From assembly GCA_041613315.1 (NCBI GenBank), contig JBFJHJ010000013.1, positions 6,932 to 70,931 on the forward strand: a stretch of DNA of 64,000 nucleotides, given 5' to 3'. The position numbers were made by a program, and so were the translations under genes. The DNA comes from Gemmatimonadales bacterium (GTDB lineage Bacteria > Gemmatimonadota > Gemmatimonadetes > Gemmatimonadales > GWC2-71-9). This document shows positions 43,013 through 59,178 of this stretch, piece after piece. Each line of letters opens with the position of its first letter. Within the stretch, counting starts at the first letter, position 1. Under the pieces are notes generated by a model, which saw nothing but the letters and a program-made list of their open reading frames with translations, had not been told where the DNA came from and did not search any database.

Positions 43013-43594
43013 TCAGCTAGCGGGTGGCTCCCGCAGGTCAGGGGTCGGCTCGCGGTACGCATCCACATGCTCGCCCGCGGCCTCGTCGAGCGGCTCGCCC
43101 AGCGGGTGGGCCAACAGCTCCTCGCGGATCTTGGGGTGCATCCGCCACAGGTAATAGCCCATGCCAAACGCCGCAATCGCGTTGCCGATCGCGACGTTCC
43201 ACCAGGTGAGCGCGCCGAGGAGGGGCTGCGCCACGACGGCCAGCAGGATGTAAAAGCCCACCTCGAAGATCGCGAAGAAGACGACGACGATGTACAACGT
43301 GGACGGGAACAGCTCGATCTCGTACGCGAGGGCGGCCGCAATCACGCCCACCGCGACGAAGGCGACCACATGGACCATCGTGTAGCCGATGACGGTGGCG
43401 AAAACCTGTTCACCCGTCGGGAAGATCGCGCCCACCTGGGCCGGATCCCGCAGACCCCAGAAGAGCGCGGCGCCGAGCATCTTCGGGGTGAAGAATGGCT
43501 GCCCGTTGACGGTGTCGACAACGAGAAACCACAGGGCCACGGCGGCCGCACCGATGAGTCCGGCCACGAAGCCCTCCCGAAGGATCCGTTGCAT
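43013..43594 (-). CDS. Hypothetical membrane protein (about 4 TM)
   Basis: Hydrophobic helices, YTMVHVVAF; GGGGGA RBS. Confidence 0.7.
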   Translation of the reverse strand: MQRILREGFVAGLIGAAAVALWFLVVDTVNGQPFFTPKMLGAALFWGLRDPAQVGAIFPTGEQVFATVIGYTMVHVVAFVAVGVIAAALAYEIELFPSTLYIVVVFFAIFEVGFYILLAVVAQPLLGALTWWNVAIGNAIAAFGMGYYLWRMHPKIREELLAHPLGEPLDEAAGEHVDAYREPTPDLREPPAS

Positions 43595-43698
43595 CAGTCC
43601 CCCTTGCACGGGCGGTCGGCACCCAATATAGGGACTCGTGCCCGCCTGGCGAGTCCCGATTGCGGCGCATCGGCATTCTCACTCAAATTACGGGACGC

Positions 43699-44082
43699 AT
43701 GACCCGCGACCTCAAGTTCCGTCAGGCGGCATTGGTGTACCTGCACGTCGGCATCCTCTACGAGGGCGCCGTCGTGGCCATGTGGCAGCGGGGTCTGCTC
43801 TTTCCGCACGGCCCGCCATGGATGCGGGCGATCCCGCCCTGGGGGTGGATGCTCATCGGAGCAGCCATCGTCGCGGTGGTCGTGTGGGGGCTGTGGACGT
43901 GGCAGAACGTCTGGTTCGCCCGCGCCGTGTGGTTCATCGGCAGCCTTCGCGTCCCCACGTTGCTGGCGGGGGCGTTCTTTCCGCGGCCGGAGCACGTGCT
44001 GAGCCCCGCGTTCTACGGAACCGCGCTCGCCGTCGTGCTCATCAACCTCTGGATGCTCGCCCGCGCGGCATGGGACGTATGA
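43699..44082 (+). CDS. Hypothetical membrane protein (about 4 TM)
   Basis: AALVYLHVGILYE; ATGA overlap with the Mrp gene. Confidence 0.7.
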   Translation: MTRDLKFRQAALVYLHVGILYEGAVVAMWQRGLLFPHGPPWMRAIPPWGWMLIGAAIVAVVVWGLWTWQNVWFARAVWFIGSLRVPTLLAGAFFPRPEHVLSPAFYGTALAVVLINLWMLARAAWDV

Positions 44083-44978
44083 CGCCGGATTTCCGCACCT
44101 ATCATGACGTGACAGGGGACGATCGCTCCGGCCTGCTCGAGCAAGTGGGGCGCCAGCGGGAGCGCGTACGCGCCCGCCTCGCCGACGTGAGCCGCGTGGT
44201 GGCCGTCATGAGCGGTAAGGGCGGCGTTGGCAAGAGTCACGTCACCGCTGGCCTCGCCTACGCCGTGGCGACACGGGGGGAGGGCGCCGTCGGCGTTCTG
44301 GATGCGGACCTCCAGGCCCCGACGGCGGCCCGCCTGCTTGATGCCCGCGGTCCGGTACGCGTGGGAGACGACGGCGCCGAGCCGGTGATGGGTGCGGGTG
44401 GCGTGCGGGTGTTCTCGATGGACCTCCTGCTGGCGGAGGGACAGCCGTTGCGCTGGCGCGAGCCGGAGTCGGAGCGATTCGTGTGGCGTGGCACGCTCGA
44501 GACGGGCGCGCTCCGTGAGTTTCTGAGCGACGTCCGGTGGGGTGCCCTGGAAGTGCTGCTCATCGATCTGCCGCCCGGAGCCGCGCACCTCGCCGACCTC
44601 AAGTCGCTGGTGCCGGCCCTGACCGGCGCCGTCGCCGTCACGATCCCGAGTGAGGAATCCCGGCGGGCGGTGGAGCGCGCCATTCGCGCGGCCGGGGACG
44701 CGGGCATCCGGCTCCTGGGCGTGGTGGAGAACCTGAGCGGGTACGCCTGTGCCGGGTGCGACTCGACCCAGCCGCTGTTCCCAGGTGACGCCGGTGCGTC
44801 GCTCGCGCGCGCTTTCGGAGCGCCGTTGCTTGGCCGGATCCCCTTTACTCCCGCGCCGCCGCCGGCAGACGAAAGCGGTCGGGTGTGGCCGCCGCCGCCC
44901 GCGCGTTCCGCCGCCGTGGCGGTTCCTCCCGTTGTGCCGTCCTCGCTGGTGGACGCGTTTCTCGAGGCCCTGTCATGA
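44079..44978 (+). CDS. Mrp/NBP35-family P-loop ATPase (Fe-S carrier-like)
   Basis: MSGKGGVGKS, LDADL, WRG, IDLPPG, VENLSGYACAGC. Confidence 0.9.
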   Translation: MTPDFRTYHDVTGDDRSGLLEQVGRQRERVRARLADVSRVVAVMSGKGGVGKSHVTAGLAYAVATRGEGAVGVLDADLQAPTAARLLDARGPVRVGDDGAEPVMGAGGVRVFSMDLLLAEGQPLRWREPESERFVWRGTLETGALREFLSDVRWGALEVLLIDLPPGAAHLADLKSLVPALTGAVAVTIPSEESRRAVERAIRAAGDAGIRLLGVVENLSGYACAGCDSTQPLFPGDAGASLARAFGAPLLGRIPFTPAPPPADESGRVWPPPPARSAAVAVPPVVPSSLVDAFLEALS

Positions 44979-45415
44979 AATTCCTTTGCGTCGACTGCGA
45001 CGAGCGGATGCACTTCGAGGAGCGCGACGTTCCGGGCGACGGGACGTTCGCCGCGGCGTTCACCTGTCCCCGGTGCGGGCGGCGCATCGCGCTCCTCGCC
45101 AACCCCATGGAGACGCAGCTCGTCGAATCGCTCGGCGTGCAGATCGGCGGCCGGCGGCTCGACGAGCAGCCCCTCGAGCTCGTCCGGCAGCGGGTGGTGG
45201 GCCGCGAAGACGCTTTCGAGGATGCCGAACGGCCGCCCCGCGGCCGGCCCGCATGGAGCCCCGAGGCACGCGAGCGCCTCGGCCGCGTGCCGAATTTCGT
45301 GCGGGGCATGGTGCAGAAGATCTACGCCGAATACGCCGCTGAGCGCGGGATCGCCGAGATCACACCTGGCGTGATGGATCAGGCGCGTCAGGAGCTGGGA
45401 CTGGAGGGGATGTAA
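44975..45415 (+). CDS. Zn-ribbon (CxxC..CxxC) plus PCP_red-like domain protein
   Basis: CVDC, CPRC; WSPEARERLGRVPNFVRGMVQKIYAEYAAERGIAEIT. Confidence 0.8.
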   Translation: MKFLCVDCDERMHFEERDVPGDGTFAAAFTCPRCGRRIALLANPMETQLVESLGVQIGGRRLDEQPLELVRQRVVGREDAFEDAERPPRGRPAWSPEARERLGRVPNFVRGMVQKIYAEYAAERGIAEITPGVMDQARQELGLEGM

Positions 45416-45658
45416 GTGCCGGACGTTGAGCAGCGGGCCGTCGGCGGCCTGAGCGTGCGGATCGACCGCACGCTCTGCGTGGGCTTCGGGGACTGCATCA
45501 CGGAAGCGCCGGAGGCCTTCGCGCTGGACGGCGAGGGGATCGCCGTGTTCCTCGCTCCCGAGGCTGTCGATCGCGAGCGGTTGCTCCGCGCGTGCGACGC
45601 GTGTCCCGTGGACGCGCTCACGGTGGTGGACGACGGAGGCCGGCAACTCGTCCCTTGA
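45416..45658 (+). CDS. Single-cluster ferredoxin, probably [3Fe-4S]-type
   Basis: IDRTLCVGFGDC...ACDACPVDAL; second Cys of CxxCxxC replaced by Phe. Confidence 0.85.
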   Translation: MPDVEQRAVGGLSVRIDRTLCVGFGDCITEAPEAFALDGEGIAVFLAPEAVDRERLLRACDACPVDALTVVDDGGRQLVP

Positions 45659-45683
45659 CACACCCGCCAGGGGGTCCCATACT
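45655..45683 (+). promoter_or_regulatory. Sigma-70-type promoter upstream of the USP gene
   Basis: TTGACA - 17 nt - CATACT; the -35 overlaps the ferredoxin stop codon. Confidence 0.7.
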
Positions 45684-45832
45684 CGCCCCGAGCGTAGGGG
45701 AAAAAGGCGCCGCTGACGGATTCTCGGTGGGGAAGCAGCCGGCAACCGGCGTGGCACCCGCCGTCGTCGTGATACAGAGATCGCCAGATCTGTTGCCTTC
45801 CGAACACGACCATCCGGGCCGGAGGCCGTGCT

Positions 45833-47833
45833 GTGTATAGGGAAATCTTCGTTCCCGTCGATAACTCCCAGCATTCCAATTGGGCCGTCGACCGCGCGAT
45901 CGAGATCGCGGCCACCACCGGGGGTTACATCACCGGGAATCACGTGTATGCCGCCCGTCTGCACGACATACGGTTCCGCCAGTTGGAGACCGGGCTCCCC
46001 GCCCGATTCCAGACGCCCGAGGAGATCAAGCGCCAGCGCAAGGTGCACGACAAGCTGATCGAGAAAGGCCTCCAGTTGATTTCGGACTCGTTCCTCGACC
46101 AGGTCGAGCTGCGCGCGGCGCGGGCGGGCGCGCCGCTGCGCCGGCAGCTGCTCGAAGGCATCAACTATGAGGAGATCGTCCGTGAGGTGAACCGGGGCGA
46201 GGGCACTCTGCCGAGCCTCATCGGCTTCGATCCGAACATCGCGGCGAGCTATGACGGCGGCGCCACGGTGCGGAGCGACGTGCGGTTGGGGGCCGATGGG
46301 CGCATCGTCGGCGAGGACGAAGATCAGGCGGACAAGGTCGCCGGTACGTCGGGGCGGCGCTACGACCTGATCGTCATCGGCGCACACGGTATCGGCCGTC
46401 AGCCCTACTCCCAGCTGGGCGGCGTCGTCGGTCGGGTGGCCCGCGGCGTCGAGAAGGACATGCTCCTGGTGCGCGACGACCGCCCGCTGGCGGGCGGCAC
46501 CCTTATGGTGTGCGTGGACGGGTCCTCATACAGCTACAAGGCGATGCGCGAGGCACTGGAGCTCGCCCGCCGCTTCGGCTCGTCGCTGTACGTGTGCAGC
46601 GCCTTCGACGTGGAGTACCACCACGCGGTGTTCCACAACATCAAGGACGTCCTGTCGGTCAAGGCCTCGAAGGTGTTCAAGTTCGAGGAGCAGGAAGAGC
46701 TGCACAACAACATCATCGACAAGGGTCTGCTCAAGCTCTCCCAGGCAAACCTCAAGCGGGCCGAAGTGATGGCGCAGGAGTTCCCCGACGTCCCGCTCAC
46801 GACGCAAATCCTCATCGGCAAACCGTTCCAGGTGATCCTCCAGTGGGTCGAGGAGGTCCGTCCATCGCTTCTCGTGATCGCACGGCACGGCGCGCACCGC
46901 ATCGAAGGGACCGAAATGGGGTCGCAGGCCGAGAATCTGATCCGCCTTGCGCCCTGCAACATGCTGGTCGTCGGCACGCAGGCCGTCCGTCCTGAAGAGA
47001 TTCCGTGGATCGAGGAGGACGGCGAGGCCGGACTTCCCTGGGCGCCCGAGGCGGAGGTCCGCATTCTCCGGGTGCCGCCGTTCGCCCAGGGGATCGCGCG
47101 CCGGGCGGTGGAGGAATACACGGCGGAGCACGGTGGCGACGTGGTGACCAACCCATGGCTGGACCAGGCGATCCAGAAGCTTCTCCCGACCCACATGCAG
47201 CTCATCATGGGCATCGGCGATGCCGAAGAAGTCGCCCGGGCCGAGGTGAAGGCCGAAGAGCAGATGGCGAAGACGGTGGTGCGCGGGAGCGACCGTGACC
47301 AGGAGGCGGGGGGCGCAACCCTCGAGGTCCGCTGTCCCGTGACCGGCCACGTCACCACGCGGCCGCGAACGGCGGCCGACCAGCCGGTATGGACCCGGGA
47401 GGCGTTCGAGCGTCTGACGGTGGTGCCGCTCATCGCCCGGCCCCTCGCCCGCATGACCGTCGAGCGATTCGCGCGGCAGCACGATGTCTGGCGGATCACC
47501 ACGAGCGTGATGGATGAGAACAAGCAGGCCATGATCGAGGCGGACGAGTTCGACGCCGAGACCATGATGGGCATGTTCCGCGAGCTGCGGGCCAAGCAGA
47601 TCCGGGCGGAGGCCGAGGGTCGCGACGCTTTATCGCCGGAGATGCGTCAATTCATCGAGGAGGCGAAGCGCGCCGGGGTCACACGCTGCCCGATCCGTGA
47701 CCTCGAGGATCGCAGTATCGACGAGCAGATGGCCGCCTGTCCGGTGGACTTCAAGCTGGCGACCCCCGCCGACGCGAAGGCGGCCGTCGAGCGCGTGCTC
47801 TCTCAGGAGACGGAGGAGGAGCCGGAGCCGTGA
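45833..47833 (+). CDS. Tandem universal-stress-protein domains fused to two PCP_red-like domains and a Cys-Pro tail
   Basis: IFVPVDNS, DLIVIGAHG, MVCVDGS, MGSQAENLIRLAPCNMLVV; WAPEAEVRILRVPPF and WTREAFERLTVVPL; CPV, CPI, CPV. Confidence 0.85.
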   Translation: MYREIFVPVDNSQHSNWAVDRAIEIAATTGGYITGNHVYAARLHDIRFRQLETGLPARFQTPEEIKRQRKVHDKLIEKGLQLISDSFLDQVELRAARAGAPLRRQLLEGINYEEIVREVNRGEGTLPSLIGFDPNIAASYDGGATVRSDVRLGADGRIVGEDEDQADKVAGTSGRRYDLIVIGAHGIGRQPYSQLGGVVGRVARGVEKDMLLVRDDRPLAGGTLMVCVDGSSYSYKAMREALELARRFGSSLYVCSAFDVEYHHAVFHNIKDVLSVKASKVFKFEEQEELHNNIIDKGLLKLSQANLKRAEVMAQEFPDVPLTTQILIGKPFQVILQWVEEVRPSLLVIARHGAHRIEGTEMGSQAENLIRLAPCNMLVVGTQAVRPEEIPWIEEDGEAGLPWAPEAEVRILRVPPFAQGIARRAVEEYTAEHGGDVVTNPWLDQAIQKLLPTHMQLIMGIGDAEEVARAEVKAEEQMAKTVVRGSDRDQEAGGATLEVRCPVTGHVTTRPRTAADQPVWTREAFERLTVVPLIARPLARMTVERFARQHDVWRITTSVMDENKQAMIEADEFDAETMMGMFRELRAKQIRAEAEGRDALSPEMRQFIEEAKRAGVTRCPIRDLEDRSIDEQMAACPVDFKLATPADAKAAVERVLSQETEEEPEP

Positions 47834-49164
47834 GGCGTTCGGCCGTGGCGCTGCTGGGGGAGTCGCCGGCGCGCGCGACTCCCGGCGCTGAGCCCGTGCC
47901 ACACGTGGTCGCGTGGAACCTCACGCGCCGGTGCAACCTGGAGTGTGCCCACTGTTATATCGCGGCGGGGCCACAGGAGTCGGCAACGGACGAGCTGACC
48001 ACCCGGGAATGCCTCCGCATCGCAGACGAGATTCTCGCCCTCAACCCCGCGCCGATGTTCATCCTCTCGGGCGGCGAGCCGCTGTTGCGCGAGGACCTGA
48101 CCACCATCGCGGCGCATGCCAGCAGACGGGGGGCGACCGTCGTCGTGGGCACCAACGGTACGCTGCTGACGGATGACCGCATCGCCGCGCTGTGCGATGC
48201 CGGGGTAAGCGGCGTCGCGGTCAGCGTGGAGTCGCTGGACCCGTCGTACCACGATCGCTTCCGCCGCGGGCACGGCTCGCTCGCCGCGACGCGCGCGGCG
48301 GTGAAGCGCCTCGGCGTGCGCGGCGTGGACGTGGTGATCCAGACGACGATTACCAAGCACAACCGCGACGAGCTCCGACCGCTGGTGGCATGGGCGGCGG
48401 ATCAGGGCGCCGTCGCCTTCAATGCGTATTTCCTCGTGGCCACGGGACGCGGCGCCCGCATGAGCGGCCTCACCCCGGAAGGCTACGAAGCCGTGCTCGA
48501 GGAGTTGGTGGACCTGCACCAGACCTACCTCGGCCGATTGATGGTCCGGGCGAAATGCGCACCACAGTTCATGCGGCTGGTCCACCGCCGCATCCCCGAC
48601 TCCCCGATCCTCAACTATGCGACGCGGTGCCCCTGCGGCGTGCAGTACTGCCGGGTGACGCCGGACGGACAGGTGACGGCCTGCCCGTACCTGCCGCTGC
48701 CAGCGGGCGACTTGCGGACCCAGTCGTTTGCCGAGGTGTGGCGCGCCTCGCCGCTGTTCCGCGACCTGCGGCAGGGCACGCTGGGGGGGAAGTGCGGCAC
48801 CTGTGAGTATCGCCGGCTCTGCGGCGGCTGCCGGGCGCGTGCTTTCGCCACGGACGGCGATCCCCTCGGAGCGGATCCGTCGTGCGCGTACGAGCCGTCC
48901 GGCGACGTCCCGGTGATCGAGCCGGCGCGCGCCGTCACCTACGGGATGCCGGCCGTCCCAACCCTCCGCTGGACACCGGAAGCGGAAGCGCGCCTGCAAC
49001 GCATCCCGTCGTTTGTGCGCGGGGTGGTGGTCCGGCGGCTCGAGGACTACGCCCGTCGCGAGGGGAAGTCGGAGGTGACCGTCGACCTGATGGACGAGGT
49101 GCGGAAGACCATGCCGGTGGATTTCTCGAAACGCCTGCCGTTCTTCGCGCGCCATGACCGCTGA
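47830..49164 (+). CDS. Radical SAM/SPASM protein, AhbD/NirJ heme-biosynthesis-like, with C-terminal PCP_red-like domain
   Basis: VAWNLTRRCNLECAHC, SGGEP, KCAPQF, SPASM GKCGTCEYRRLCGGCRARA..DPSC; WTPEAEARLQRIPSFVRG. Confidence 0.88.
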   Translation: MRRSAVALLGESPARATPGAEPVPHVVAWNLTRRCNLECAHCYIAAGPQESATDELTTRECLRIADEILALNPAPMFILSGGEPLLREDLTTIAAHASRRGATVVVGTNGTLLTDDRIAALCDAGVSGVAVSVESLDPSYHDRFRRGHGSLAATRAAVKRLGVRGVDVVIQTTITKHNRDELRPLVAWAADQGAVAFNAYFLVATGRGARMSGLTPEGYEAVLEELVDLHQTYLGRLMVRAKCAPQFMRLVHRRIPDSPILNYATRCPCGVQYCRVTPDGQVTACPYLPLPAGDLRTQSFAEVWRASPLFRDLRQGTLGGKCGTCEYRRLCGGCRARAFATDGDPLGADPSCAYEPSGDVPVIEPARAVTYGMPAVPTLRWTPEAEARLQRIPSFVRGVVVRRLEDYARREGKSEVTVDLMDEVRKTMPVDFSKRLPFFARHDR

Positions 49165-50845
49165 CCTGACATTCCTGCTCCAGGCGGCGGCCGACACCGC
49201 GGGCGCCTACGGACACTTCCCCGGCGTCGGCGCGCGCGGCGCCGTGTGGATCGCCGCGGAAGTGCATCTCATGTTCGCGGCGTTCGTGCTTGGCGTGCCG
49301 ATGTTCGCGGTGATCACCGAGCTCATCGGCATCGTCACCAAGGACCCGAAGTACGACACGCTGTCCAAGGAGTTCACCCGGCTCCTGGTCTTCGCCTACA
49401 GCGCCACGGCGTTGTGGGGCGCGGTGCTCGTCTTCTTTCTGACGACGCTGTACCCGCGGTTCTGGAACCACATGACGGAGATCTTTCACCTGTCCATGTG
49501 GATCTACGTCGGAGTGTTCTTCGTCGAGTCCTTCACGCTCTACCTCTATTACTACGGGTGGGACCGCTGGAAGGCGGGACGGGCGAAGCTCGGCCATTGG
49601 GGGCTGGGCGTGCTGCTGAACGTGTGGGGCACCATCGTGATGTTCATCGCGAACGGGTGGCTCACGTACATGATGTCGCCGCCCTCCGGAGCCACGCCCC
49701 AGGGCCTCCCGCCCGAGGTGAGCCTCTGGAATGCGATCGCCAACGCGACGTGGATGCCGATCAACATCCATCGGCTGATCGGGAATGCGGTCTTCGGCGG
49801 GACGATCGTGGCGGCCTACGCGGGCTACCGCTTCCTCTCGGCGAAGACCGACGAGGAGCGGGCCCATTACGACTGGATGGGCTACGTCGGCAACTTCATC
49901 GCGATTTCGACGTTCATCGTGCTGCCCTTCGCGGGCTACTACCTGGGCCGGGAGATCTACGAGTACAACCAACAGATGGGCATCACCATGATGGGCGGCT
50001 TCATGAGCTGGCTGTGGATCGTGCAGGCCGTGCTCATCGGCGTGCTGTTTCTGGCCGCGAATTACTACCTGTGGATCGGCATGGGGCGCATTCCGGGAGC
50101 GGAACGATTCATGCCGTATACGAAGTGGATGCTGCTCGTCCTCGTAGTCGGCTGGCTGGTGTGGGCGACGCCGCACACCATGATCGCCAGTCGTGAAGAG
50201 CTGGCCGCCATGGGCGGATCGCACCACCCCTTCCTCGACGTCCTGGGGGTGATGAGCGCGAAGAACACGGCCGTCAACCTCATGATCCTCACGACGTTCT
50301 TGTCGTTCCTCCTGTACCGCCGCGCCAACAAGCGGCCCGTGGTGCCGTGGGCCAGGAGCGGCACGATCGTCCAGAGCGCCATGTTCGGCATCGCCGTGGC
50401 GGTCGTCGTGGGGTACGGCATCGCGGGGTACTTCGTCCCCGACATCGTGCGGATCGGGTACAGTGTCTATCAGGTCCTGACCGTGCTGGCGTGTATCATC
50501 GGCGTCACGGTGGTCGATCTGGCGCTGGTGCGCGGCGCGGAATCCCGGGGGGCGATCCGCTGGGGACGAATGCCGGAGCGCTCGCAATACGCCCTCTTCG
50601 TCTTGGCCGTGACCTTCACGTGGCTCATGGGGTTGATGGGGTTCGCCCGCAGCGGGATCCGCCAACACTGGCACGTCTGGGAAGTCTTGCGCGACACCAG
50701 TCCGTTCGCCGCCACGCCCCCGCTCGGCGCGGCCGCTAACATGATCAGCGTCTGCGTCGTGATCTTTCTCGCGCTGGTGGCATTCATCTTCTGGCTGGGT
50801 GGCCTGGCCGAGAAAGCCGTGGCCAAGCCGGCAGCGAGGGCCTGA
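49154..50845 (+). CDS. Cytochrome bd subunit I-like (CydA-like) oxidoreductase lacking the Q-loop
   Basis: EVHLMFAAFVLG, FFVES..YYYGWDR, ANGW, NIHRLIG, ARSGIRQHW; about 13 TM. Confidence 0.85.
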   Translation: MTADLTFLLQAAADTAGAYGHFPGVGARGAVWIAAEVHLMFAAFVLGVPMFAVITELIGIVTKDPKYDTLSKEFTRLLVFAYSATALWGAVLVFFLTTLYPRFWNHMTEIFHLSMWIYVGVFFVESFTLYLYYYGWDRWKAGRAKLGHWGLGVLLNVWGTIVMFIANGWLTYMMSPPSGATPQGLPPEVSLWNAIANATWMPINIHRLIGNAVFGGTIVAAYAGYRFLSAKTDEERAHYDWMGYVGNFIAISTFIVLPFAGYYLGREIYEYNQQMGITMMGGFMSWLWIVQAVLIGVLFLAANYYLWIGMGRIPGAERFMPYTKWMLLVLVVGWLVWATPHTMIASREELAAMGGSHHPFLDVLGVMSAKNTAVNLMILTTFLSFLLYRRANKRPVVPWARSGTIVQSAMFGIAVAVVVGYGIAGYFVPDIVRIGYSVYQVLTVLACIIGVTVVDLALVRGAESRGAIRWGRMPERSQYALFVLAVTFTWLMGLMGFARSGIRQHWHVWEVLRDTSPFAATPPLGAAANMISVCVVIFLALVAFIFWLGGLAEKAVAKPAARA

Positions 50846-50849
50846 CGCC

Positions 50850-51641
50850 ATGTGGCTCACGAACCTGAAAGTGGGGGCCGTCGGGCTGCTGGTGATCCTG
50901 TTCTATACGGCCGTGGCCCACGTGATCCCGCAGCTGCAGTCGGAAGTGCCGCAAGCCGTGGCGCTCGGCGACGATGTGAGCCCTGCCGTGCTGGCCGCCA
51001 CCGGCGAACAGGTCTACAACGGTGCGGGGGGGTGCACCGCCTGTCACGGGCTGGGTACCCGCGCGCCCAACCTGCTCACCGACTACGCGGGGCAGGGACC
51101 CATCGGGGCGCGCTGCCAGCAGCGGCTCGATGCCGACTGTAAGCGCTACCTGCACGCGTCGCTGACGCACCCCGGTGACTCGGTCGTGCTGCCGTTCGCG
51201 AACATCATGCCCGACGTCGCCCGCCAGTTGGGCGACCCGCGCGCGGTGTGGGCCCTCGTGGCGTTCCTGCAAGCGCAGGGCGGTGAGATCACCGTGACGG
51301 CCGATGATGTCCAATCTGCCGCCGCCCGTGAAGCACCGGCGAGCGGGGGCGGCGAGGCGGTCGCCCGGTCGGCGACGATGGACCCGCGGCAGCTCCTCCA
51401 GGAGCACGCCTGTACGGGCTGTCACGCGATCGACGGGGCCGGACCTCCGATCGGGCCGTCCTTCGACGGCATCGGGTCCCGGATCTCCGCGAACCAGATC
51501 CGCCGCGGCATCCTCGATCCCGATGCAGAGGTCACCCGCGGGTTCGAACCGTTCGCAGGGATGATGCCCAAGACCTTCGGGCAGCAACTGTCGGCAGCCC
51601 AGCTGGAAGCGATCGTGCAATTCCTGGCGAACCGCAAGTGA
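50850..51641 (+). CDS. Membrane-anchored diheme cytochrome c
   Basis: N-terminal TM; CTACH..IMP and CTGCH..MMP. Confidence 0.9.
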   Translation: MWLTNLKVGAVGLLVILFYTAVAHVIPQLQSEVPQAVALGDDVSPAVLAATGEQVYNGAGGCTACHGLGTRAPNLLTDYAGQGPIGARCQQRLDADCKRYLHASLTHPGDSVVLPFANIMPDVARQLGDPRAVWALVAFLQAQGGEITVTADDVQSAAAREAPASGGGEAVARSATMDPRQLLQEHACTGCHAIDGAGPPIGPSFDGIGSRISANQIRRGILDPDAEVTRGFEPFAGMMPKTFGQQLSAAQLEAIVQFLANRK

Positions 51642-52450
51642 GCATCATGCATCAGGTCAAAGAAGCGCTCCGACATCCGTTCTGGCAGGCGGTACTGCTG
51701 CTGGTCGGGGCGTACGTGCTGTTCAAGTTCGGCGTCGCGTATCTGCCACCCGTGTTTGGCGTACCCAGCGCGCCGGTGCCCCGGAGCGTCCTGCTCCAGT
51801 ACATGCTCACGGCGCTCGTCGGCATCCTGATCTACGTGAGCGACAACGAAGAACGCTGGCGCCGGTTCAAGGCGCCGATCGCCGCCACTCTCGTCGACGC
51901 CGACAAGCGCTGGCTCCGGGGGGCGCTGCTCGTGCTCGGGCCGGCGCTGGTCGGGTTCGTCGCGTACGAACAGGTACGTCCCAAGGTGTCGGCGCCCGTC
52001 CAGCTCCGCTCGATACACCCGGCGCCGCCGGGGCAGATCACGTTCCGCGGTCAGACCATCGCGCTCGACACGCTGCAGAACCCGCTTCGGGCACGGGGCT
52101 CGCTCGAGGAGCACGTGGCGGCCGGCCGGCGCATCTACTATCAGAACTGTCTTCCCTGCCACGGTGACCTGCTGGACGGCCGGGGGCACTTCGGGCACGG
52201 CTTCAACCCCACGCCCCTCGCCTTCGACAAGGGGACCATCGCACAGCTGCGCGAGAGCTTCGTCTTCTGGCGGGTGGCGAAAGGGGGACCCGGCCTGCCG
52301 CGCGAAGGCGGGCCGTGGAACTCGGCCATGCCGGTGTGGGAGGACTTCCTCACAGCCGACGAGATCTGGGCCGTCGTGACCTTCATGTATGAGCAAGCGG
52401 GCGTGCAGCCACGCCAGCTCGGCGCGGGCGAGGGAGGGGGCCATGATTAG
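51638..52450 (+). CDS. Monoheme cytochrome c with about 3 N-terminal TM helices
   Basis: CLPCHG...SAMPVW. Confidence 0.9.
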   Translation: MSIMHQVKEALRHPFWQAVLLLVGAYVLFKFGVAYLPPVFGVPSAPVPRSVLLQYMLTALVGILIYVSDNEERWRRFKAPIAATLVDADKRWLRGALLVLGPALVGFVAYEQVRPKVSAPVQLRSIHPAPPGQITFRGQTIALDTLQNPLRARGSLEEHVAAGRRIYYQNCLPCHGDLLDGRGHFGHGFNPTPLAFDKGTIAQLRESFVFWRVAKGGPGLPREGGPWNSAMPVWEDFLTADEIWAVVTFMYEQAGVQPRQLGAGEGGGHD

Positions 52451-54062
52451 CCGGACCGGCGGCAGGGCGGTAGGGCGGTATGTCGCTCCGGTGACCAGAG
52501 CGGCCATCGCCCTGCTGACTCTTCTCGCTGCCGGACCGCCGCACCGCCTGACCGCCCAGGGGGAGGCGGGGGAGCCGGGCAAGGCGACCTACGACAAGTG
52601 GTGCGCCGAATGCCACGGCACGACCGGCGCCGGCGACGGAAGCGCCGCCCCGTTCATGCTGCCGAGGCCGCGCGACTTCACCCGTGCCCTGTACCAGATC
52701 CGCACGACGGCGAGCGGCGAGTTGCCGACGGACCGGGACATCCAGCGGGCGGTGGACGAGGGGATGCCGGGGACGGCGATGCCTGGGTGGAAAACGGAGC
52801 TCTCGGATCGGGAGCGGCGTGACGTCATCACGTACATCAAGGCCTTCTCGCGGTTCTTCGACGGCGCAGCACCCCAGCCCCTCGATTTCGGGAAGGCTCC
52901 GGGCCGATCGGCCGATGGGCTCGCCGAGGGCCGCCGCGTGTACGAGCAGCTCGAGTGCTTCAAGTGTCACGGGGACCAGGGCCGGGGGGACGGGCCGTCG
53001 GCGCCGACGCTGACGGATGACTGGGACCACCCCATCCGCGCGGCGAACCTGCACAAGCCGTGGACCTTCAACGGTGGCGGCACCGTGGAGCAGATTTACC
53101 GGCGCATCCGCACGGGCTTGGACGGCACGCCGATGCCGTCGTACTCCGACGCGCTTGCCGCGGGGCTGGTCACGGAGGAGCAGCTGTGGCGCGTCGCCCA
53201 GTATGTGCGGAGCTTGGGTCCCGAGGAATCTCCACCGCGCGTGCGCGACGTGTTCCGGGCGGTGCGGCTCGAGGGCGAGCTGCCGACGGGGCCGGACGAC
53301 GGTGCGTGGGCGGGGGTGGAAGGGTTCTACGTGCCGCTCGTCGGTCAAATCATCCGGAAGCCGCGGTGGTTCGCGCCCCGGGTGGACGCCGTCTGGGTCC
53401 AGGCCGTGCATGACGGACGGCGGCTGGCGCTGCGGCTCGCGTGGGACGACCCCTCGAAGAGCCCGGACCCGCTGTGGCAGGAGTCGACGGACCGGATGGC
53501 GGCCGCGGTGACCGATGTGGACGGCCCCGTGCCGACGGGACAGAGCGGCGATCGGTTCCATGTGCAGTTCCCGCTGCGGCTCACCGACGGGATGGAGCGG
53601 CCCTACTTCCTGGGTGGCGACGCGCGGCGGCCCGTGTACGATTGGCGCTGGTCGAGCGCACCCGATCGCCTGGAGGAGGGGACGGCGACGGGCCTCGACC
53701 GGTTCAATGCCGCCCCGGGCGGGCCGCAGGTGACGCACGCGGCCGTCTACGATCAGGGGCAATGGCGCCTGCAGCTCACGCGGGTGCTGGTGCCGGCGGA
53801 CTCGGCAGCTGCACTCACGTTCGTCGAAGGGCGGGCGATCCCGGTGGCGTTTTTCGCCGCGGACGGCAGTGACGGCGAGGTGGGCTTGCGCGGGTCGGTG
53901 AGCGCCTGGTACGCCGTCTATCTCGACGTGCCGACGCCCGTGTCGGCGTTCGTGACGCCGCTCGTGGCCGTGTTGCTTACGGCAGGCTTCGGTATCATGG
54001 TATTATGGAGAGCACAGCGGCGCGGCCGTGCGGCCGCGCGTCCTCACGCGGAGGGATCATGA
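52443..54062 (+). CDS. Diheme cytochrome c with EB_dh/DOMON-like domain and C-terminal TM anchor
   Basis: CAECH..GTAMP, CFKCH..GTPMP; VQAVHDG..LALRLAWDDP, GQWRLQLTR. Confidence 0.88.
   Translation: MISRTGGRAVGRYVAPVTRAAIALLTLLAAGPPHRLTAQGEAGEPGKATYDKWCAECHGTTGAGDGSAAPFMLPRPRDFTRALYQIRTTASGELPTDRDIQRAVDEGMPGTAMPGWKTELSDRERRDVITYIKAFSRFFDGAAPQPLDFGKAPGRSADGLAEGRRVYEQLECFKCHGDQGRGDGPSAPTLTDDWDHPIRAANLHKPWTFNGGGTVEQIYRRIRTGLDGTPMPSYSDALAAGLVTEEQLWRVAQYVRSLGPEESPPRVRDVFRAVRLEGELPTGPDDGAWAGVEGFYVPLVGQIIRKPRWFAPRVDAVWVQAVHDGRRLALRLAWDDPSKSPDPLWQESTDRMAAAVTDVDGPVPTGQSGDRFHVQFPLRLTDGMERPYFLGGDARRPVYDWRWSSAPDRLEEGTATGLDRFNAAPGGPQVTHAAVYDQGQWRLQLTRVLVPADSAAALTFVEGRAIPVAFFAADGSDGEVGLRGSVSAWYAVYLDVPTPVSAFVTPLVAVLLTAGFGIMVLWRAQRRGRAAARPHAEGS
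52458..52481 (+). repeat. Three tandem octamers inside a signal-peptide coding region
   Basis: ggcggcag ggcggtag ggcggtat; same unit as the array at 29504-29675. Confidence 0.6.
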
Positions 54063-54832
54063 GACGAGTCGTAGTGGCATCGGTCTGCATCGCATTCGGC
54101 GCGTTCGCTTGCGGTGGTGGAGAGAGTGGTGGCGGTGGGGGCGCGGGTACCGGCGGTGCAGCAGGTGGGCCGAGCGGCCCGATGGGCCAGGCCAGCGTCG
54201 CGGGGGTCGTGAACTTCCAGGGTACGGCGCCCGCCAATCCGACCATCGATATGGCCAAGGAACCGACGTGCCGCGACAAGTACTCGAGCGCGCCGAGGGA
54301 TCCGCAGGTGCTCGTCACCGATGGCAAGCTGGCGAACGTTTTCGTCTACGTGAAGAGCGGACTGCCGGCAGGAGCGAAGTATGCGGCGCCGGCGACCCCG
54401 GTGGAGCTGGACCAGGAGGGTTGCCTCTATCGTCCGCGGGTCTTCGGCGTAATGGTGAGCCAGACGGTCGCGATCAAGAACAGCGACGCGCTGATGCACA
54501 ACATCAAAGCCGTGCCTCACGAGAACCGCGGGTTCAACATCAGCCAGCCCACGGCGGGGATGACGACGACGCGGACGTTCAACACGCGCGAGATCATGGT
54601 CCCCTTCGAGTGCAACGTGCACGGCTGGATGCGCGCGTACGCGGGCGTCCTGGATCATCCGTTCTTCGCGACCTCGGCGCAGAACGGCACGTTCACGATC
54701 CCCCGGATGCCGGCGGGTACATACGAGCTGGAGGCGTGGCACGAGAAGTTCGGCACCCGGAGCGCGACGGTGACGGTGCCCGATACCGGAACGGTGCGCG
54801 TCGAGTTCCGGTTCAGCGCGTCGACGTCCTGA
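54059..54832 (+). CDS. Lipoprotein with cupredoxin-like domain inside a carboxypeptidase-regulatory-like fold
   Basis: AFAC lipobox, Gly linker; LDQEGC.YRP, MHNI...FECNVHGWM; PAGTYELEAWHE. Confidence 0.75.
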   Translation: MRRVVVASVCIAFGAFACGGGESGGGGGAGTGGAAGGPSGPMGQASVAGVVNFQGTAPANPTIDMAKEPTCRDKYSSAPRDPQVLVTDGKLANVFVYVKSGLPAGAKYAAPATPVELDQEGCLYRPRVFGVMVSQTVAIKNSDALMHNIKAVPHENRGFNISQPTAGMTTTRTFNTREIMVPFECNVHGWMRAYAGVLDHPFFATSAQNGTFTIPRMPAGTYELEAWHEKFGTRSATVTVPDTGTVRVEFRFSASTS

Positions 54833-54845
54833 CGGGAGACGGTGC

Positions 54846-55520
54846 ATGAACTGGCTTCTGCCGGGCGGCGTCTCGACGTTCGCCGGCGACATCGACCGCC
54901 TCTACTACGTGATCCTCGGCATCACGGGCGCGGCGTTCGTGATCGTCGAGGTCGCGCTGATCTGGTTCTTGATCAAGTACCGCGCCCGGCCGGGCCGGAA
55001 AGCGTATTACACGCACGGTAGCGTCAAGGCCGAGGTGATCTGGACGACGGTGCCGGCGGTGGTGGTGGTGATGATCGGCATTCTGAGCGGCGGAGTGTGG
55101 AACCAGATCCGGGGCCGCGACAGCGTGCCGCCGGGGGCGTTACCGCTGGCCGTGCACGCGAAGCAGTTCGAGTGGCTCGTCACCTATCCTGGTCCGGACG
55201 GCCAGCTCGGGACCGACGACGACTTCGAGCGGCGCAACGACCTGCGGCTCCCGGTGGACACGCCGATGGTGATCGCTCTGACCTCGGAGGACGTGATCCA
55301 TTCGTTCTTCATCCCGGAGTTCCGAGTGAAGCAGGACGTCGTGCCCGGCATGACGATCCGTGCCTGGTTCGAGGCCACCGCGACGGGTGAGTACTCGCTG
55401 GCCTGTGCCGAGCTCTGCGGGAACGGCCATACGACGATGGGCGGCACGGTGACCGTGCTGTCGCTGGACGAGTACACCCAGTGGCTCGCGGACCCGAGCC
55501 GAACCGTGGCTTCGCGGTAG
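54846..55520 (+). CDS. coxB: Cytochrome c oxidase subunit II, second copy (no fused cytochrome c)
   Basis: EVIWT, KQFEW, DVIHSFF, CAELCGNGHTTM. Confidence 0.95.
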   Translation: MNWLLPGGVSTFAGDIDRLYYVILGITGAAFVIVEVALIWFLIKYRARPGRKAYYTHGSVKAEVIWTTVPAVVVVMIGILSGGVWNQIRGRDSVPPGALPLAVHAKQFEWLVTYPGPDGQLGTDDDFERRNDLRLPVDTPMVIALTSEDVIHSFFIPEFRVKQDVVPGMTIRAWFEATATGEYSLACAELCGNGHTTMGGTVTVLSLDEYTQWLADPSRTVASR

Positions 55521-55532
55521 AGGAGCGCGCAC

Positions 55533-57293
55533 ATGGCGACGATGGCAGCGACGATCGATCACGCCCACGCCCACGTGGACGATCGGTCGTTCCTCCGCAA
55601 GTACATCTTTTCGACCGACCACAAGATCATCGGGATTCAGTTCCTCATGTTGAGCTTGCTGTTCCTGCTGATCGGCGGCCTGCTCGCGATGATGATGCGG
55701 TGGGAGCTGGGCTTCCCGACGCAGCCGATGCCCGGCGGCACCCTGTTGCCGGAGACGATGGCGCCGGGCGGGATTCTCCTGCCGGAGTTCTACAACTCCC
55801 TCGTCACCATGCACGGCACGTTCATGGTGTTCTTCGCGATCATGCCGCTCTTGGTGGGCGTCTTCGCGAACTACTTGATCCCGCTCAAGCTCGGCGCGCC
55901 GGACATGGCGTTCCCCCGGTTGAACATGGCGTCGTTCTGGATCGCCGTGCCGGCCGGGGTCCTCATGCTCGCGGGCTTCTTCGTCGAGGGCGGCGCCGCC
56001 GGTGCCGGGTGGACGTCATACGCGCCGCTCAGCGCCAACGCCGAGTACTCCGGCGTGAGCTTGGGGCAAGAGCTCTGGTGTCTCAGTCTCGTCGTGTTGG
56101 GGCTCTCGTCAATCCTGGGCGCCACGAACTACATCACGACGGTGATCAACATGCGGGCGCCCGGGATGACCTGGTTCCGCATGCCGCTCTCGATCTGGTC
56201 GCTGTTCATCACCGCGATCCTGACGCTCCTCGCGATCCCGATTCTGTCGGGAGCGGCGATTATGCTGCTCTTCGATCAGACGATCGGGACGACCTTCTTC
56301 CTGCCGGCGGAGGGCGGGCAGCCGCTGCTGTGGCAGCACCTGTTCTGGTTCTTCGGGCACCCGGAGGTCTACATCCTCATCCTGCCGGCGATGGGCATGG
56401 TGTCGGACATCATCGCCAATGGCGCGCGCAAGCCGATCTTCGGCTATCACTCGATGGTCTACGCGATCATCGGGATCGGCTTCCTGGGCTGGATCGTGTG
56501 GGGGCACCACATGTTCCAGAGCGGGATGAACCCGACGCTCGGTACGACCTTCATGATCTCGACCATGCTGATCGCCGTCCCGTCGGCCATCAAGACGTTC
56601 AACTGGCTGGGGACCCTGTGGCGCGGCAACATCCGGCTCCACGTGCCGATGCTGCACGCGTGCGCCTTCGTGGCGATGTTCGTCATCGGCGGATTGAGCG
56701 GTGTGTACATGGCGTCGACGCCGGTCGACATCTACATCCACGACACGTACTTCATCGTGGCGCACCTGCATTACGTGCTGTTCGGCGGCAGCCTCTTCGC
56801 CCTATTCGGGGCCATCACGTTCTGGTACCCCAAGATGTTCGGCCGGATGATGAACCCGCTCTTGGGGAAGGCGCACTTCTGGCTGACGTTCCTGTTCTAC
56901 AACCTCACTTTCTTCCCGATGCACGAACTGGGGCTGCAGGGCCACATGCGTCGGATCTACGACCCGACACAGTATGCCTTCCTCCAGCACCTGCAGCCGC
57001 TCAACGAGTTCATCACGCTGAGCGCATTCCTGCTGTTCGCGGTACAGCTCATCTTCGCCGTGAACTTCATCATGAGCTGGTGGAATGGGAAGAAGGCGTC
57101 GCCGAACCCGTGGGAAGACACCGGCCTCGAGTGGAGCACGCCGTCGCCGCCGCCGCACGGCAATTGGCCGGAGACGCCGACGGTGCACCATGCGCCGTAC
57201 GAATTCAGCTCGCCGCTCGTGCAGGAGGACTACCTGATGCAGAACCGGAAGGTCGAGGGTGCGCCGGCGGCCGCGGCGTCCCGCACCGAGTGA
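55533..57293 (+). CDS. coxA: Cytochrome c oxidase subunit I, second copy, A1-type
   Basis: STDHKIIG, PDMAFPRLN, FGHPEVY, WGHH, PSAIK, HLHY, MRR. Confidence 0.97.
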   Translation: MATMAATIDHAHAHVDDRSFLRKYIFSTDHKIIGIQFLMLSLLFLLIGGLLAMMMRWELGFPTQPMPGGTLLPETMAPGGILLPEFYNSLVTMHGTFMVFFAIMPLLVGVFANYLIPLKLGAPDMAFPRLNMASFWIAVPAGVLMLAGFFVEGGAAGAGWTSYAPLSANAEYSGVSLGQELWCLSLVVLGLSSILGATNYITTVINMRAPGMTWFRMPLSIWSLFITAILTLLAIPILSGAAIMLLFDQTIGTTFFLPAEGGQPLLWQHLFWFFGHPEVYILILPAMGMVSDIIANGARKPIFGYHSMVYAIIGIGFLGWIVWGHHMFQSGMNPTLGTTFMISTMLIAVPSAIKTFNWLGTLWRGNIRLHVPMLHACAFVAMFVIGGLSGVYMASTPVDIYIHDTYFIVAHLHYVLFGGSLFALFGAITFWYPKMFGRMMNPLLGKAHFWLTFLFYNLTFFPMHELGLQGHMRRIYDPTQYAFLQHLQPLNEFITLSAFLLFAVQLIFAVNFIMSWWNGKKASPNPWEDTGLEWSTPSPPPHGNWPETPTVHHAPYEFSSPLVQEDYLMQNRKVEGAPAAAASRTE

Positions 57294-57304
57294 GCGAGGG
57301 GGGT

Positions 57305-57982
57305 ATGGCACACGCCGCAGTGATGCGCCCGCCCGCCCCGGCCGAACCGGGCGCCGGGGTCTATAACGCGAAGCTCGGGATGTGGGTTTTCCTGGGCTCA
57401 GAGGTGATGTTCTTCACGGCCCTCATCGGGTCGTACATCATTCTCCGTTTTGGGAACGAACAGTATTGGGCTCAGCCGGCGCAGATCCTGAACGTCCCGA
57501 TCACGGCGTTCAATACGTTCTGGCTCATTTGCTCCAGCGTCACGATGGTGAAGGCCTTTGCGGCCGCTCAGGACGGTAACCAGAAGGCGCTTCGTGGTTG
57601 GCTCGTCGCGACGGTCGTGATCGGCGCCATGTTCGTGGGCATTCAGGCCTACGAGTACGCCCAGCTGATCCATCTTGGGTTCCTGCCGAGCGGCTATCGA
57701 GCGGGGAGCGAGCTGGCTGAGGCCGCCGCGGCCGGAACGCCCTACCACGGGAGCGCCCTCCCCGCGTCCGTGAGCCTGTACGGCGCCACGTTCTACACCA
57801 TGACCGGGTTCCATGGCTTCCACGTGACGATGGGCGTCATCTGCATGGCGTTCGTCACGTGGAAGGCGTTCCGAGGAAGCTACACCGCCACCGATCATCG
57901 GGGCGTCGAGGTGATCGGGCTATACTGGCACTTCGTGGATCTGGTGTGGATCATTCTGTTCACCATCGTCTACCTGATCTGA
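57305..57982 (+). CDS. coxC: Cytochrome c oxidase subunit III, second copy, intact
   Basis: FLGSEVMFF, TGFHGFHV, GLYWHFVDLVW; C-terminal part of track ORF 55481..57982. Confidence 0.93.
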   Translation: MAHAAVMRPPAPAEPGAGVYNAKLGMWVFLGSEVMFFTALIGSYIILRFGNEQYWAQPAQILNVPITAFNTFWLICSSVTMVKAFAAAQDGNQKALRGWLVATVVIGAMFVGIQAYEYAQLIHLGFLPSGYRAGSELAEAAAAGTPYHGSALPASVSLYGATFYTMTGFHGFHVTMGVICMAFVTWKAFRGSYTATDHRGVEVIGLYWHFVDLVWIILFTIVYLI

Positions 57983-58033
57983 CGCCTGCAGGGCCGCGGC
58001 CCTGAGCCAACGACCCGCGCGGAGGCCGACGCG

Positions 58034-58315
58034 ATGGAGCAGACCGAGCACGCCAAACACCCGCCGTACGTGGGCATCTTTGCCGCGCTGGCGGTGCTGA
58101 CCGCCTTGGAACTGGGCGTCGCCTTCTTCGAGAACTGGCCGAAACGGGTGATCATCCTCGTCCTCGTCTTCCTGGCCATCTGGAAGGCGCTTCTGGTGGC
58201 GTTGTACTACATGCACCTGCGGTTCGAGCCCAACCGCCTCCGAATCCTCGCCCTGGCGCCACTGCCCCTCGCCGTGATCCTGGTGATCGCCGTGATCACC
58301 GAATACGTGTGGTAA
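58034..58315 (+). CDS. coxD: Cytochrome c oxidase subunit IV family protein
   Basis: 3 TM, KALLVALYYMHLRFE; GGAGG RBS. Confidence 0.88.
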   Translation: MEQTEHAKHPPYVGIFAALAVLTALELGVAFFENWPKRVIILVLVFLAIWKALLVALYYMHLRFEPNRLRILALAPLPLAVILVIAVITEYVW

Positions 58316-59178
58316 CCCTCGCCCTCACCCGCTCCCGCCTCGCCGACTACGTCGAGCTCACGAAGCCGGGGATCGTCACCCTGGTCCTCGTGACCGTCGC
58401 GGCGGGGTTCTATCTGAGCGCAAGCGCGATCACGGGGCTGCTCCTGTTCCACACGCTGTTGGGCGCGACGCTCGTTGCCGCCGGCAGCAACGCGCTGAAT
58501 CAAGTCGTGGAACGGGACGTCGACGCTCTGATGGATCGCACGCGCACCCGGCCACTGCCGGCCGGTCGGCTGGGGGTCGGCGAAGCCGCGGTGCTGGGCG
58601 CTGGGCTAAGTACGGCGGGCATCGCCTACCTCATGGCGTTCGTCAACGGGATCACGGCCGCGTTCGCGGCGGCCACCCTGGCGAGCTACGTGTTCCTCTA
58701 CACGCCCCTCAAGCGTCGCACGTCGCTCGCCACGCTCGTCGGCGCCGTGTCCGGCGCCCTCCCCATCGTGGGAGGCTGGGCGGCCGCGCGGGGTACGGTC
58801 GATTTTCCGGCCTGGGTGCTGTTCGCGCTCCTCTTCCTCTGGCAGCTGCCGCACTTTCTGGCATTGGCGTGGCTCTATCGCGACGACTACGCGCGGGCGG
58901 GCCTGCGTATGCTGAGTGTGACGGATGGGGCGGACGCCAACTTCCGCCAGGCGTTGCTCTACGCCGTGGCGTTGCTGCCCGTGAGCCTGGCGCCGAGCGT
59001 CGTGGGGACCACCGGGCGCGTGTACTTCTTCGGGGCGCTCGTGCTGTCCCTGTGGCTGATTGGGGCGACCGTCGTCGCCGCCCGGCGTCCCACGCGGCCG
59101 GCGGCGCGACGGTTGTTCGGCGTCAGCGTGGCGTACCTCCCTGCCGTCCTCGTCCTGATGATGGCGGACAAGGTCTAG
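58309..59178 (+). CDS. ctaB: Protoheme IX farnesyltransferase (heme O synthase)
   Basis: ELTKPGI, NQVVERDVDALMDRTRTRPLP, YTPLKR, WQLPHF, DDYARAG. Confidence 0.95.
   Translation: MVTLALTRSRLADYVELTKPGIVTLVLVTVAAGFYLSASAITGLLLFHTLLGATLVAAGSNALNQVVERDVDALMDRTRTRPLPAGRLGVGEAAVLGAGLSTAGIAYLMAFVNGITAAFAAATLASYVFLYTPLKRRTSLATLVGAVSGALPIVGGWAAARGTVDFPAWVLFALLFLWQLPHFLALAWLYRDDYARAGLRMLSVTDGADANFRQALLYAVALLPVSLAPSVVGTTGRVYFFGALVLSLWLIGATVVAARRPTRPAARRLFGVSVAYLPAVLVLMMADKV

Follow-up and report, generated by a model that had tools for sequence, protein, structure and literature searches.

Why should a domain known from chlorophyll synthesis occur four times in front of the genes for a respiratory complex? 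The question is raised by a 64,000-nucleotide stretch of a Gemmatimonadales genome (contig JBFJHJ010000013.1, positions 6,932 to 70,931 of the forward strand), called the window here in its full length; the source genome is 82.9% complete. A string of genes on the + strand begins with an Mrp-type ATPase (at 44079) and runs through a zinc-ribbon protein, a ferredoxin, a tandem universal stress protein (USP), a radical S-adenosylmethionine (SAM) enzyme, a bd-like subunit, cytochromes c and an EB_dh subunit to a heme-copper oxidase. The zinc-ribbon protein, the USP and the radical SAM enzyme carry PCP_red (PF08369) domains. From Mrp to oxidase subunit I the genes mostly overlap or are spaced by at most 13 bp; the single long gap, of 174 bp, lies upstream (5′) of the USP gene. 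The gene labels hold on Pfam: PF10609 for Mrp, PF13459 for the ferredoxin, two Usp domains, radical SAM plus SPASM, and bd subunit I-like.

We conclude that these genes form a real, conserved accessory module of an uncharacterised respiratory complex, apparently a cofactor-maturation cassette and apparently undescribed. Our best explanation, to which the sequence comparisons lead us to give an even chance, is that they would provide dedicated heme supply and hand-off, with an AhbD-like enzyme and the USP as the core, for the co-encoded bd-like complex of the TO_1/OR-N type. Literature searches (PF08369/PCP_red; bd-like with USP and radical SAM; OR-N; TO_1; DPOR) found no publication on the module, although the supplements of two bioRxiv OR-N preprints may mention the genes, and the available parts of PMC12022308 and PMC13474568 contain nothing on the role of PCP_red. 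Databases already name the architecture automatically.

Four PCP_red domains of four separate classes

Tryptophan (TGG) codons at 45254, 47039, 47390 and 48970 each start a PCP_red motif, and the PF08369 matches begin exactly at these codons. All four matches, on the + strand, exceed the Pfam gathering cut-off of 32.5 bits: copy Z of the zinc-ribbon protein (45254..45388) scores 55.2 bits, copies U1 (47039..47170) and U2 (47390..47524) of the USP score 41.3 and 39.1 bits, and copy R of the radical SAM enzyme (48970..49104) scores 62.2 bits. This confirms the initial annotation, which had placed four PCP_red-like domains on three adjoining proteins at these tryptophans; the consensus motif that it proposed also fits overall, except that U1 has RI for RL and WLD for MD. 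No other PF08369 match occurs in the source genome. The layout of one, two and one copies is repeated across 80 related loci (the best 80 of 516 matching stretches, the closest named relatives being Gemmatimonadota) wherever the genes fall on the contig.

The sequence relatives of these copies in the PDB are the C-terminal domain of ChlB/BchB (2KRU, 2XDQ, 3AEK, 2YNM) and the stand-alone Asr4154 (2L09). Identity is 62-80% within a class, 29-39% between classes and 28-34% to two BchB domains, and in a tree of 30 PCP_red domains each class is a separate, well-supported group, the deep forks being unresolved. Judged by sequence, the four copies are old, specialised classes. The domain scores, the between-class identity and the separate tree groups led us to reject chance matches or a recent tandem duplication, and a relic of phototrophy was rejected because no PF00148 (nitrogenase-component-1/DPOR) gene was found among the cassette proteins or in the 82.9%-complete genome.

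The number of PCP_red copies per USP protein varies from one to six, and U1 tolerates long insertions. An AlphaFold model predicts three helices each for U1 (residues 405-450) and U2 (522-569) with a moderate predicted local distance difference test score (pLDDT); a fold search with the whole USP protein did not have 2KRU among the matches listed. In one locus, a 345-aa protein made of four PCP_red copies only is encoded 3′ of a USP that carries six (L211:14283-15317, +).

A bd-like complex as the presumed client

The presumed client of the module is a bd-like CydA of the OR-N/TO_1 type (49154..50845, +; PF01654), which has no adjoining cydB. It is followed by a diheme cytochrome c, a monoheme cytochrome c and a diheme c plus EB_dh heme-b subunit that is alt-NxrC-like (50850..54062, +). 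In having a CydA-like subunit, two cytochromes c and a periplasmic heme-b subunit but no cydB, the block fits the descriptions of TO_1 and OR-N. Specifically, the four-gene block matches TO_1 of Manganitrophaceae as described in the available part of bioRxiv 2021.11.15.468770, and the bd-like_3/alt-NxrC_2 cluster of N. moscoviensis (NITMOv2_3643-3640) has the same four genes in the same order, as far as the available part of PMC6606698 goes. For 18 N. moscoviensis neighbours listed in the accessible material (NITMOv2_3638-3643, 3646-3655 and others), no USP or radical SAM annotation is given. The bd-like complex is probably an OR-N enzyme, judging by its genes and by partial versions of the relevant sources (bioRxiv 2021.01.16.426971, PMC10839748, PMC12342949). 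His38 and Glu125 of the bd-like protein align with His21 and Glu108 of 5DOQ, and Glu101 of 5DOQ aligns with Tyr118; His38, the equivalent of the heme ligand His19, is invariant in 53 bd-like proteins. A crude hydropathy scan of the subunit gave 11 segments (the description of OR-N N1/N2 has 14 helices).

Does the module follow this complex? Among the 80 related loci, the ferredoxin and the radical SAM enzyme are each present in 74, the zinc ribbon in 73, Mrp in 69 and the bd-like gene in 60; as read from the table, the 20 loci without a bd-like gene break off within or ahead of the radical SAM gene. At the genome level two phyla were sampled, Gemmatimonadota and Acidobacteriota. Both the USP and the bd-like gene occur in 86 of 301 Gemmatimonadota genomes, the USP alone in 2, the bd-like gene alone in none and neither in 213, giving the USP set to ~29% of them (88/301). 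In 301 Acidobacteriota genomes, the same 23 have both genes; the USP of one genome sampled for this phylum (G041) resembles those of Gemmatimonadota, perhaps through faulty binning or a transfer. Likewise, among 41 close relatives, cassette-type domains and a bd-like orthologue (at least 75% identity) are found in the same 11, and two relatives with another PCP_red pattern (two matches each) are without that orthologue. The expected co-occurrence of the cassette with bd-like genes is thus borne out in both phyla.

These kin are not independent of one another, and physical linkage itself yields co-occurrence; the independent part of the evidence is the altered gene order. In the Acidobacteriota (20 of the 23 loci examined), the bd-like block adjoins the USP in 19 of 20, and the order is mostly bd-c-c-EBdh-USP-GNAT-Mrp-ribbon-radical SAM, unlike that in Gemmatimonadota. 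Mrp and the ribbon protein are present in 15 of these 20 loci and the radical SAM enzyme in 13.

Some side observations belong to this survey. One of the two relatives with the other pattern, a likely phototroph (G018) without a bd-like orthologue, has as its two PCP_red carriers BchZ-like and BchB-like genes that join PF00148 to PCP_red (L085:309-1856 and 17294-18853). In many Acidobacteriota loci (for example L113:5491-6342, −), USP and Mrp are separated by the gene for a GNAT-like acetyltransferase of double length, which was not found in the source genome. A locus labelled Acidimicrobiia (L006) comes from a genome (G042) that the phylum search places with Gemmatimonadota.

The USP and the radical SAM enzyme form the core

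Which of these genes stay together at greater distance? In 80 metagenome loci of distant USP proteins, whose named relatives include Nitrospinota and Mariprofundaceae, the radical SAM enzyme is present in 59, and in 31 of the 32 loci of at least 14 kb; 53 of the 56 strong matches carry PCP_red. BLAST with the window's proteins found Mrp, the zinc-ribbon protein and the ferredoxin in none of the 80. Because the pair persists where these three do not, the core is the USP plus the radical SAM enzyme, and the remainder is lineage-specific. The bd-like gene was found in 25 of the 80 distant loci and in 15 of the 32 long ones. A gene with a weak match to the PNPOx split barrel occurs in 6/80 loci, between the USP and the enzyme in the loci read, and three representatives have it as a fusion; the source genome is without it.

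A radical SAM enzyme with the cysteine spacing of AhbD

The core enzyme (47830..49164, +) is an AhbD/NirJ2-like radical SAM-SPASM protein with a C-terminal PCP_red domain. The best NCBIfam matches of the enzyme and its relatives are tetrapyrrole enzymes, and the enzyme fits no named family; the relatives score 293-335 on TIGR04545 (cut-off 500). The AhbD motif, as given in the available part of PMC10452713, is CX3CX2C plus CX20-33CX17CX36-37CX2CX5CX2CX17-35C. The window's enzyme has this motif in full, with C35/39/42 followed by C243, 267, 285, 322, 325, 331, 334 and 352. The full AhbD SPASM motif is also present in 59 of 62 enzymes from Gemmatimonadota, 9 of 13 from Acidobacteriota and all 51 complete distant enzymes (5 of 56 were without the C-terminal part and were left out of this count). 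Since the genome has other heme-synthase candidates, the cassette enzyme is probably a dedicated paralogue and not the housekeeping heme synthase. Ferrochelatase was not found in the incomplete source genome. A replacement of ChdC by the cassette was considered and rejected: PF06778 is present in 7 of 11 cassette genomes and in 9 of 30 others, which is no complementary pattern.

A tandem USP with conserved histidines and Cys-Pro motifs

The other core gene (45833..47833, +) encodes a protein with two PCP_red domains, conserved histidines and three Cys-Pro motifs. Residues 1-380 have a tandem-USP fold (Foldseek E 1e-14 to 1e-11). The AlphaFold model has a pLDDT of 62.9 and a predicted template modelling score of 0.52, and the packing of the PCP_red copies in it is not resolved. 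The conserved histidines are His37, 44, 72, 263/264, 291 and 352/355; the spacing is 28 both from His44 to His72 and from His263 to His291, and between 77 and 80 of the 80 Gemmatimonadota proteins and all 20 from Acidobacteriota retain the motifs. We suggest that the protein is likely a heme carrier or scaffold.

The Cys-Pro motifs are Cys501-Pro (RCPV; 47333..47338, +), Cys619-Pro (RCPI; 47687..47692, +) and Cys636-Pro (ACPV; 47738..47743, +), with the cysteine kept in 100%, 99% and 97% of the 80 relatives, respectively. In 78 of 80 USPs all three lie 3′ of U1 (2.96 per protein against 0.38 expected), and all three also occur in 9 of 9 further Gemmatimonadota USPs. Further away, 13 of 33 long representatives have Cys-Pro (18 observed, 3.9 expected), 9 of the motifs having a histidine close behind; the 33 were taken from 150 listed, leaving out proteins of less than 550 aa and four without the marker. 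Cys-Pro also occurs in 26 of 59 distant USP tails (37 observed, 4.9 expected) and in 8 of 20 Acidobacteriota tails. Hap1 has the motif KCPVDH, and one USP (L147) has GKCPVDH twice. That protein (L147:12788-15718, +) carries PCP_red four times, and a single low-complexity linker in it holds four motifs of the form Cys-Pro-x-x-His or Cys-Pro-x-His. Such motifs have been described as heme-binding and as often lying in low-confidence regions (PMC11101860 and PMC13135908, both partial sources). The window's motifs are conserved and lie outside CxxC sites in flexible regions, with C619 and C636, C501 aside, in a low-confidence part of the model; heme binding itself is a prediction.

A tandem USP could also be a sensor of ATP, heme or redox state that regulates the enzyme or the operon and carries no cofactor. 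The fold itself would suit this, and CP motifs are best known from regulators, at least in the parts of the literature available. In the accessible part of PMC8115632, UspA proteins flank operons of N. marina that are induced at low O2. A sigma-70-like match (10 of 12 positions; 45655..45683, +) also lies at the start of the 174-bp gap just 5′ of the USP gene and is a possible internal promoter of the gene string, although the number of such sites (2 found, 1.2 ± 1.0 expected) is not significant. The USP ATP-binding motif has the form G-x2-G-x9-G-(S/T); at least one complete copy is present in only 36 of 80 USPs, and the window's protein has one substitution per domain. Moreover, the ~80% identity among relatives and the invariant histidine insertions suggest a structural or carrier role, and we regard a sensor as quite unlikely.

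A predicted Mrp complex with its confident contacts outside PCP_red

The initial annotation had read PCP_red as one docking tag that assembles Mrp, ferredoxin, USP and radical SAM enzyme by binding Mrp or ferredoxin. Mrp (44079..44978, +; PF10609, 179.9 bits) is an Mrp/NBP35-type P-loop ATPase with a conserved N-terminal extension of ~35 aa. It has both the Walker A sequence GKGGVGK and a C-terminal CxxC, and it scores below the MrpORP and ApbC equivalog cut-offs (170/450 and 108/348). The zinc-ribbon protein (44975..45415, +) has four cysteines (C5, C8, C31, C34), kept in 73 of 73 relatives, and its C-terminal PCP_red domain spans residues 94-138. The ferredoxin (45416..45658, +; PF13459) is of the single-cluster type. 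Mrp is a lineage-specific accessory; the ferredoxin is an accessory that is seen here only in Gemmatimonadota, being present in 74 of the 80 related loci there and in none of the 20 Acidobacteriota loci.

A predicted complex of two Mrp chains with the zinc-ribbon protein scored 0.65, against 0.01 for the best of three controls. Of 157 solved complexes, 116 reach the mark applied to this score, as do 2 of 215 mismatched pairs; these counts carry over to the present case only approximately. The runs agreed in at least 84% of contacts, and the pLDDT of the partner was at least 73. The confident contacts use zinc-ribbon residues 1-84 and include the conserved N-terminal extension of Mrp. No confident Mrp contact falls in PCP_red, where residues not named are uncertain and not excluded. 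The model supports the zinc-ribbon protein as a predicted partner of Mrp through residues 1-84, although the result may owe something to a similar solved complex among the PDB relatives of Mrp.

These results fit poorly with one shared tag. In its favor are the four conserved copies on three adjoining genes and the USP copy number of one to six, as expected of a binding module; BchL, the partner in DPOR, is moreover a MinD-type ATPase like Mrp. However, the copies are class-specific and about as far from each other as from BchB, and the domains persist in the 80 distant loci from which Mrp, zinc-ribbon protein and ferredoxin are missing. Given the class divergence and a predicted interface outside PCP_red, Mrp or ferredoxin is unlikely to be the general target of the domain, and we consider a common tag of this kind improbable. 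What stands of the initial annotation is the PF08369 identity, the tie to the bd-like genes and the plausibility of heme handling.

Could Mrp and the zinc-ribbon protein instead be a metallochaperone like HypB and HypA, the module mainly inserting metal into the bd-like or the heme-copper oxidase? The predicted complex would suit this, and the PDB relatives of Mrp include 3VX3 and 5AUN-5AUQ, which we take to be Thermococcus HypB and HypAB structures. Where Mrp is without CxxC, its ribbon partner keeps all four cysteines (19/19). Yet the pair is absent from all 80 distant loci, neither Pfam nor the PDB links the zinc ribbon to HypA (no PDB match lies below E 0.1), and the AhbD-like enzyme would be left unexplained; this makes a metallochaperone very unlikely.

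Weighing a heme hand-off against other chemistry

We now return to heme supply and hand-off by the enzyme and the USP, against which several observations weigh. The best NCBIfam scores of the window's enzyme, 284/500 for NirJ2 (TIGR04055) and 275/500 for AhbD (TIGR04545), are far below the cut-offs. The source genome also has an AhbD-type gene (TIGR04053, 419/395), convergent with a protoporphyrinogen-oxidase gene (L150:7150-9676), and a ChdC-family stub interrupted by a contig end. With these other coproheme-decarboxylase candidates, plain heme b may be available already, and the third enzyme may do something else. A CP motif is insufficient as proof of heme binding (PMC5758875, available in part); 20 of the 33 representatives, 33 of the 59 distant tails and 12 of the 20 USPs from Acidobacteriota are without Cys-Pro, and the related sequences in these counts are not independent. 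By sequence, C501 may be the remnant of a zinc knuckle that is present there in 19 of 20 Acidobacteriota USPs. Of 14 full-length copies of the ribbon protein from Acidobacteriota, 13 have a CPF in their variable linker, and its Pro aligns with Pro66, inside the predicted Mrp interface, a caveat to reading it as a heme motif. The CxxC of Mrp is kept in 46 of 66 relatives and absent in 19. Finally, in 17 of the 32 long distant loci no bd-like gene lies close by, and in Nitrospira-like loci the USP-radical SAM pair stands behind mpqE and a B12 radical SAM gene.

Some of these points would suit a module that builds some cofactor different from heme b for its bd-like client, the enzyme modifying heme or coproheme, or cross-linking protein and heme, and the USP presenting the substrate. 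The other decarboxylase candidates, with ChdC-family genes in 7 of 11 cassette genomes, favor this, as does an enzyme that fits no named family. The bd-like gene never occurs without the USP (0/86 and 0/23), and the bd-like protein is unlike canonical CydA in having Tyr118 for Glu101 of 5DOQ and no cydB. However, the cysteine spacing of the enzyme is exactly that of AhbD, inheritance as one gene block would also explain the co-occurrence, and there is no direct sign of new chemistry. We consider another cofactor, although the leading alternative, rather unlikely.

The position behind mpqE could also mean that the USP and the radical SAM enzyme work in quinone synthesis, their link to the bd-like genes being incidental. 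In the distant loci, mpqE lies just 5′ in 16 of 80 and the B12 radical SAM gene in 18 of 80, yet the 80 loci from Gemmatimonadota and the 20 from Acidobacteriota yielded neither of them, and tetrapyrrole families come closest to the radical SAM enzyme; a quinone role is extremely unlikely. One such locus (L216:7346-14180, +) encodes mpqE (a methyl-plastoquinone methyltransferase, above its cut-off), an slr0320-like B12 radical SAM protein, the USP-radical SAM pair and then a DUF4149 membrane protein.

From domain identity, gene order, co-occurrence and sequence motifs we infer four steps for a heme hand-off. The enzyme, with two auxiliary [4Fe-4S] sites, would, like AhbD, need neither O2 nor H2O2 to convert Fe-coproporphyrin III into heme b by decarboxylation. 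The USP would hold the product or a precursor transiently on Cys-Pro and conserved histidines and pass it on to the membrane subunit. The PCP_red copies would be specialised, non-interchangeable contact modules, most likely joining the USP and the enzyme. In Gemmatimonadota and Acidobacteriota, Mrp bound to the zinc ribbon, as predicted, would be recruited through the free PCP_red tail of the ribbon protein and load Fe-S clusters on the enzyme, for which the ferredoxin could be the electron donor in Gemmatimonadota.

Neighbouring genes

The bd-like block is followed by genes for a periplasmic carboxypeptidase-regulatory-like protein, subunits II, I, III and IV of the heme-copper oxidase and heme O synthase (54059..59178, +), which continue the gene string. 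The first of these (54059-54832, +) is conserved between the bd-like block and subunit II and is found near distant USPs in 14 of 80 loci. Just 5′ of the cassette lies a second complete heme-copper oxidase operon (39151-42926, +), whose subunit II is fused to cytochrome c and whose subunit I is present in only 4 of 80 related loci. Two small membrane proteins (43013-43609, −, and 43720-44082, +) accompany the cassette in 24 and 37 of 80 loci, respectively, and have no Pfam or NCBIfam match. A plasmid search gave one weak Usp match and nothing else.

Implications and comparison with known systems

According to the TO_1 and OR-N sources cited above, Nitrospira and Manganitrophus express few respiratory genes as highly as those of OR-N/TO_1 complexes, whose function is unconfirmed. 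Because the set tracks these complexes almost one to one in two phyla, it is the prime candidate to be their maturation kit and tells which genes to co-express for an active enzyme. A possible role of the USP as a bacterial heme chaperone can be tested directly by mutating the Cys-Pro and histidine positions, and the module gives a new approach to PF08369, a domain whose structures have been solved and for which our literature search found no assigned function. A bolder and unlikely conjecture is that the bd-like complex, found in nitrite oxidisers and many soil bacteria, needs a special tetrapyrrole, made by the radical SAM enzyme and relayed on the Cys-Pro motifs of the USP, PCP_red being a general docking module for tetrapyrrole enzymes shared with chlorophyll synthesis. 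If true, this would mean a new heme type, a new class of bacterial heme chaperones and a kit to express and assay these oxidases.

How does the module compare with known systems? With the PCP_red domains of BchB, ChlB and BchZ, the four copies share scores above the Pfam cut-off and matches to solved chains, and three helices are predicted for U1 and U2 at moderate pLDDT; however, those proteins carry the domain behind PF00148, whereas here its fusion partners are a zinc ribbon, Usp domains and a radical SAM enzyme. Like the Fe-S carriers Mrp, ApbC and Cfd1, the window's Mrp has PF10609, the deviant Walker A GKGGVGK and CxxC, but it stays under the MrpORP and ApbC cut-offs, CxxC is lost in 19 of 66 relatives and a dedicated zinc-ribbon partner is predicted. 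The USP has the fold of the tandem-type proteins Rv2623, TTHA0350 and UspE over residues 1-380, although identity is only 16-19% and long His-bearing helical insertions, C-terminal PCP_red repeats and Cys-Pro motifs are added here. The enzyme shares CX3CX2C and the eight-cysteine SPASM motif with AhbD of M. barkeri and D. vulgaris; it differs from AhbD and NirJ2 in its scores (275-284 bits, cut-off 500), its extra PCP_red tail, its place in an oxidase operon and its USP partner, and its activity is a prediction. Finally, the client has gene content and order in common with Nitrospirota TO_1 (bd-like_3, two cytochromes c and alt-NxrC_2), but in contrast to TO_1 of N. moscoviensis, it has the PCP_red cassette in front and a heme-copper oxidase behind.

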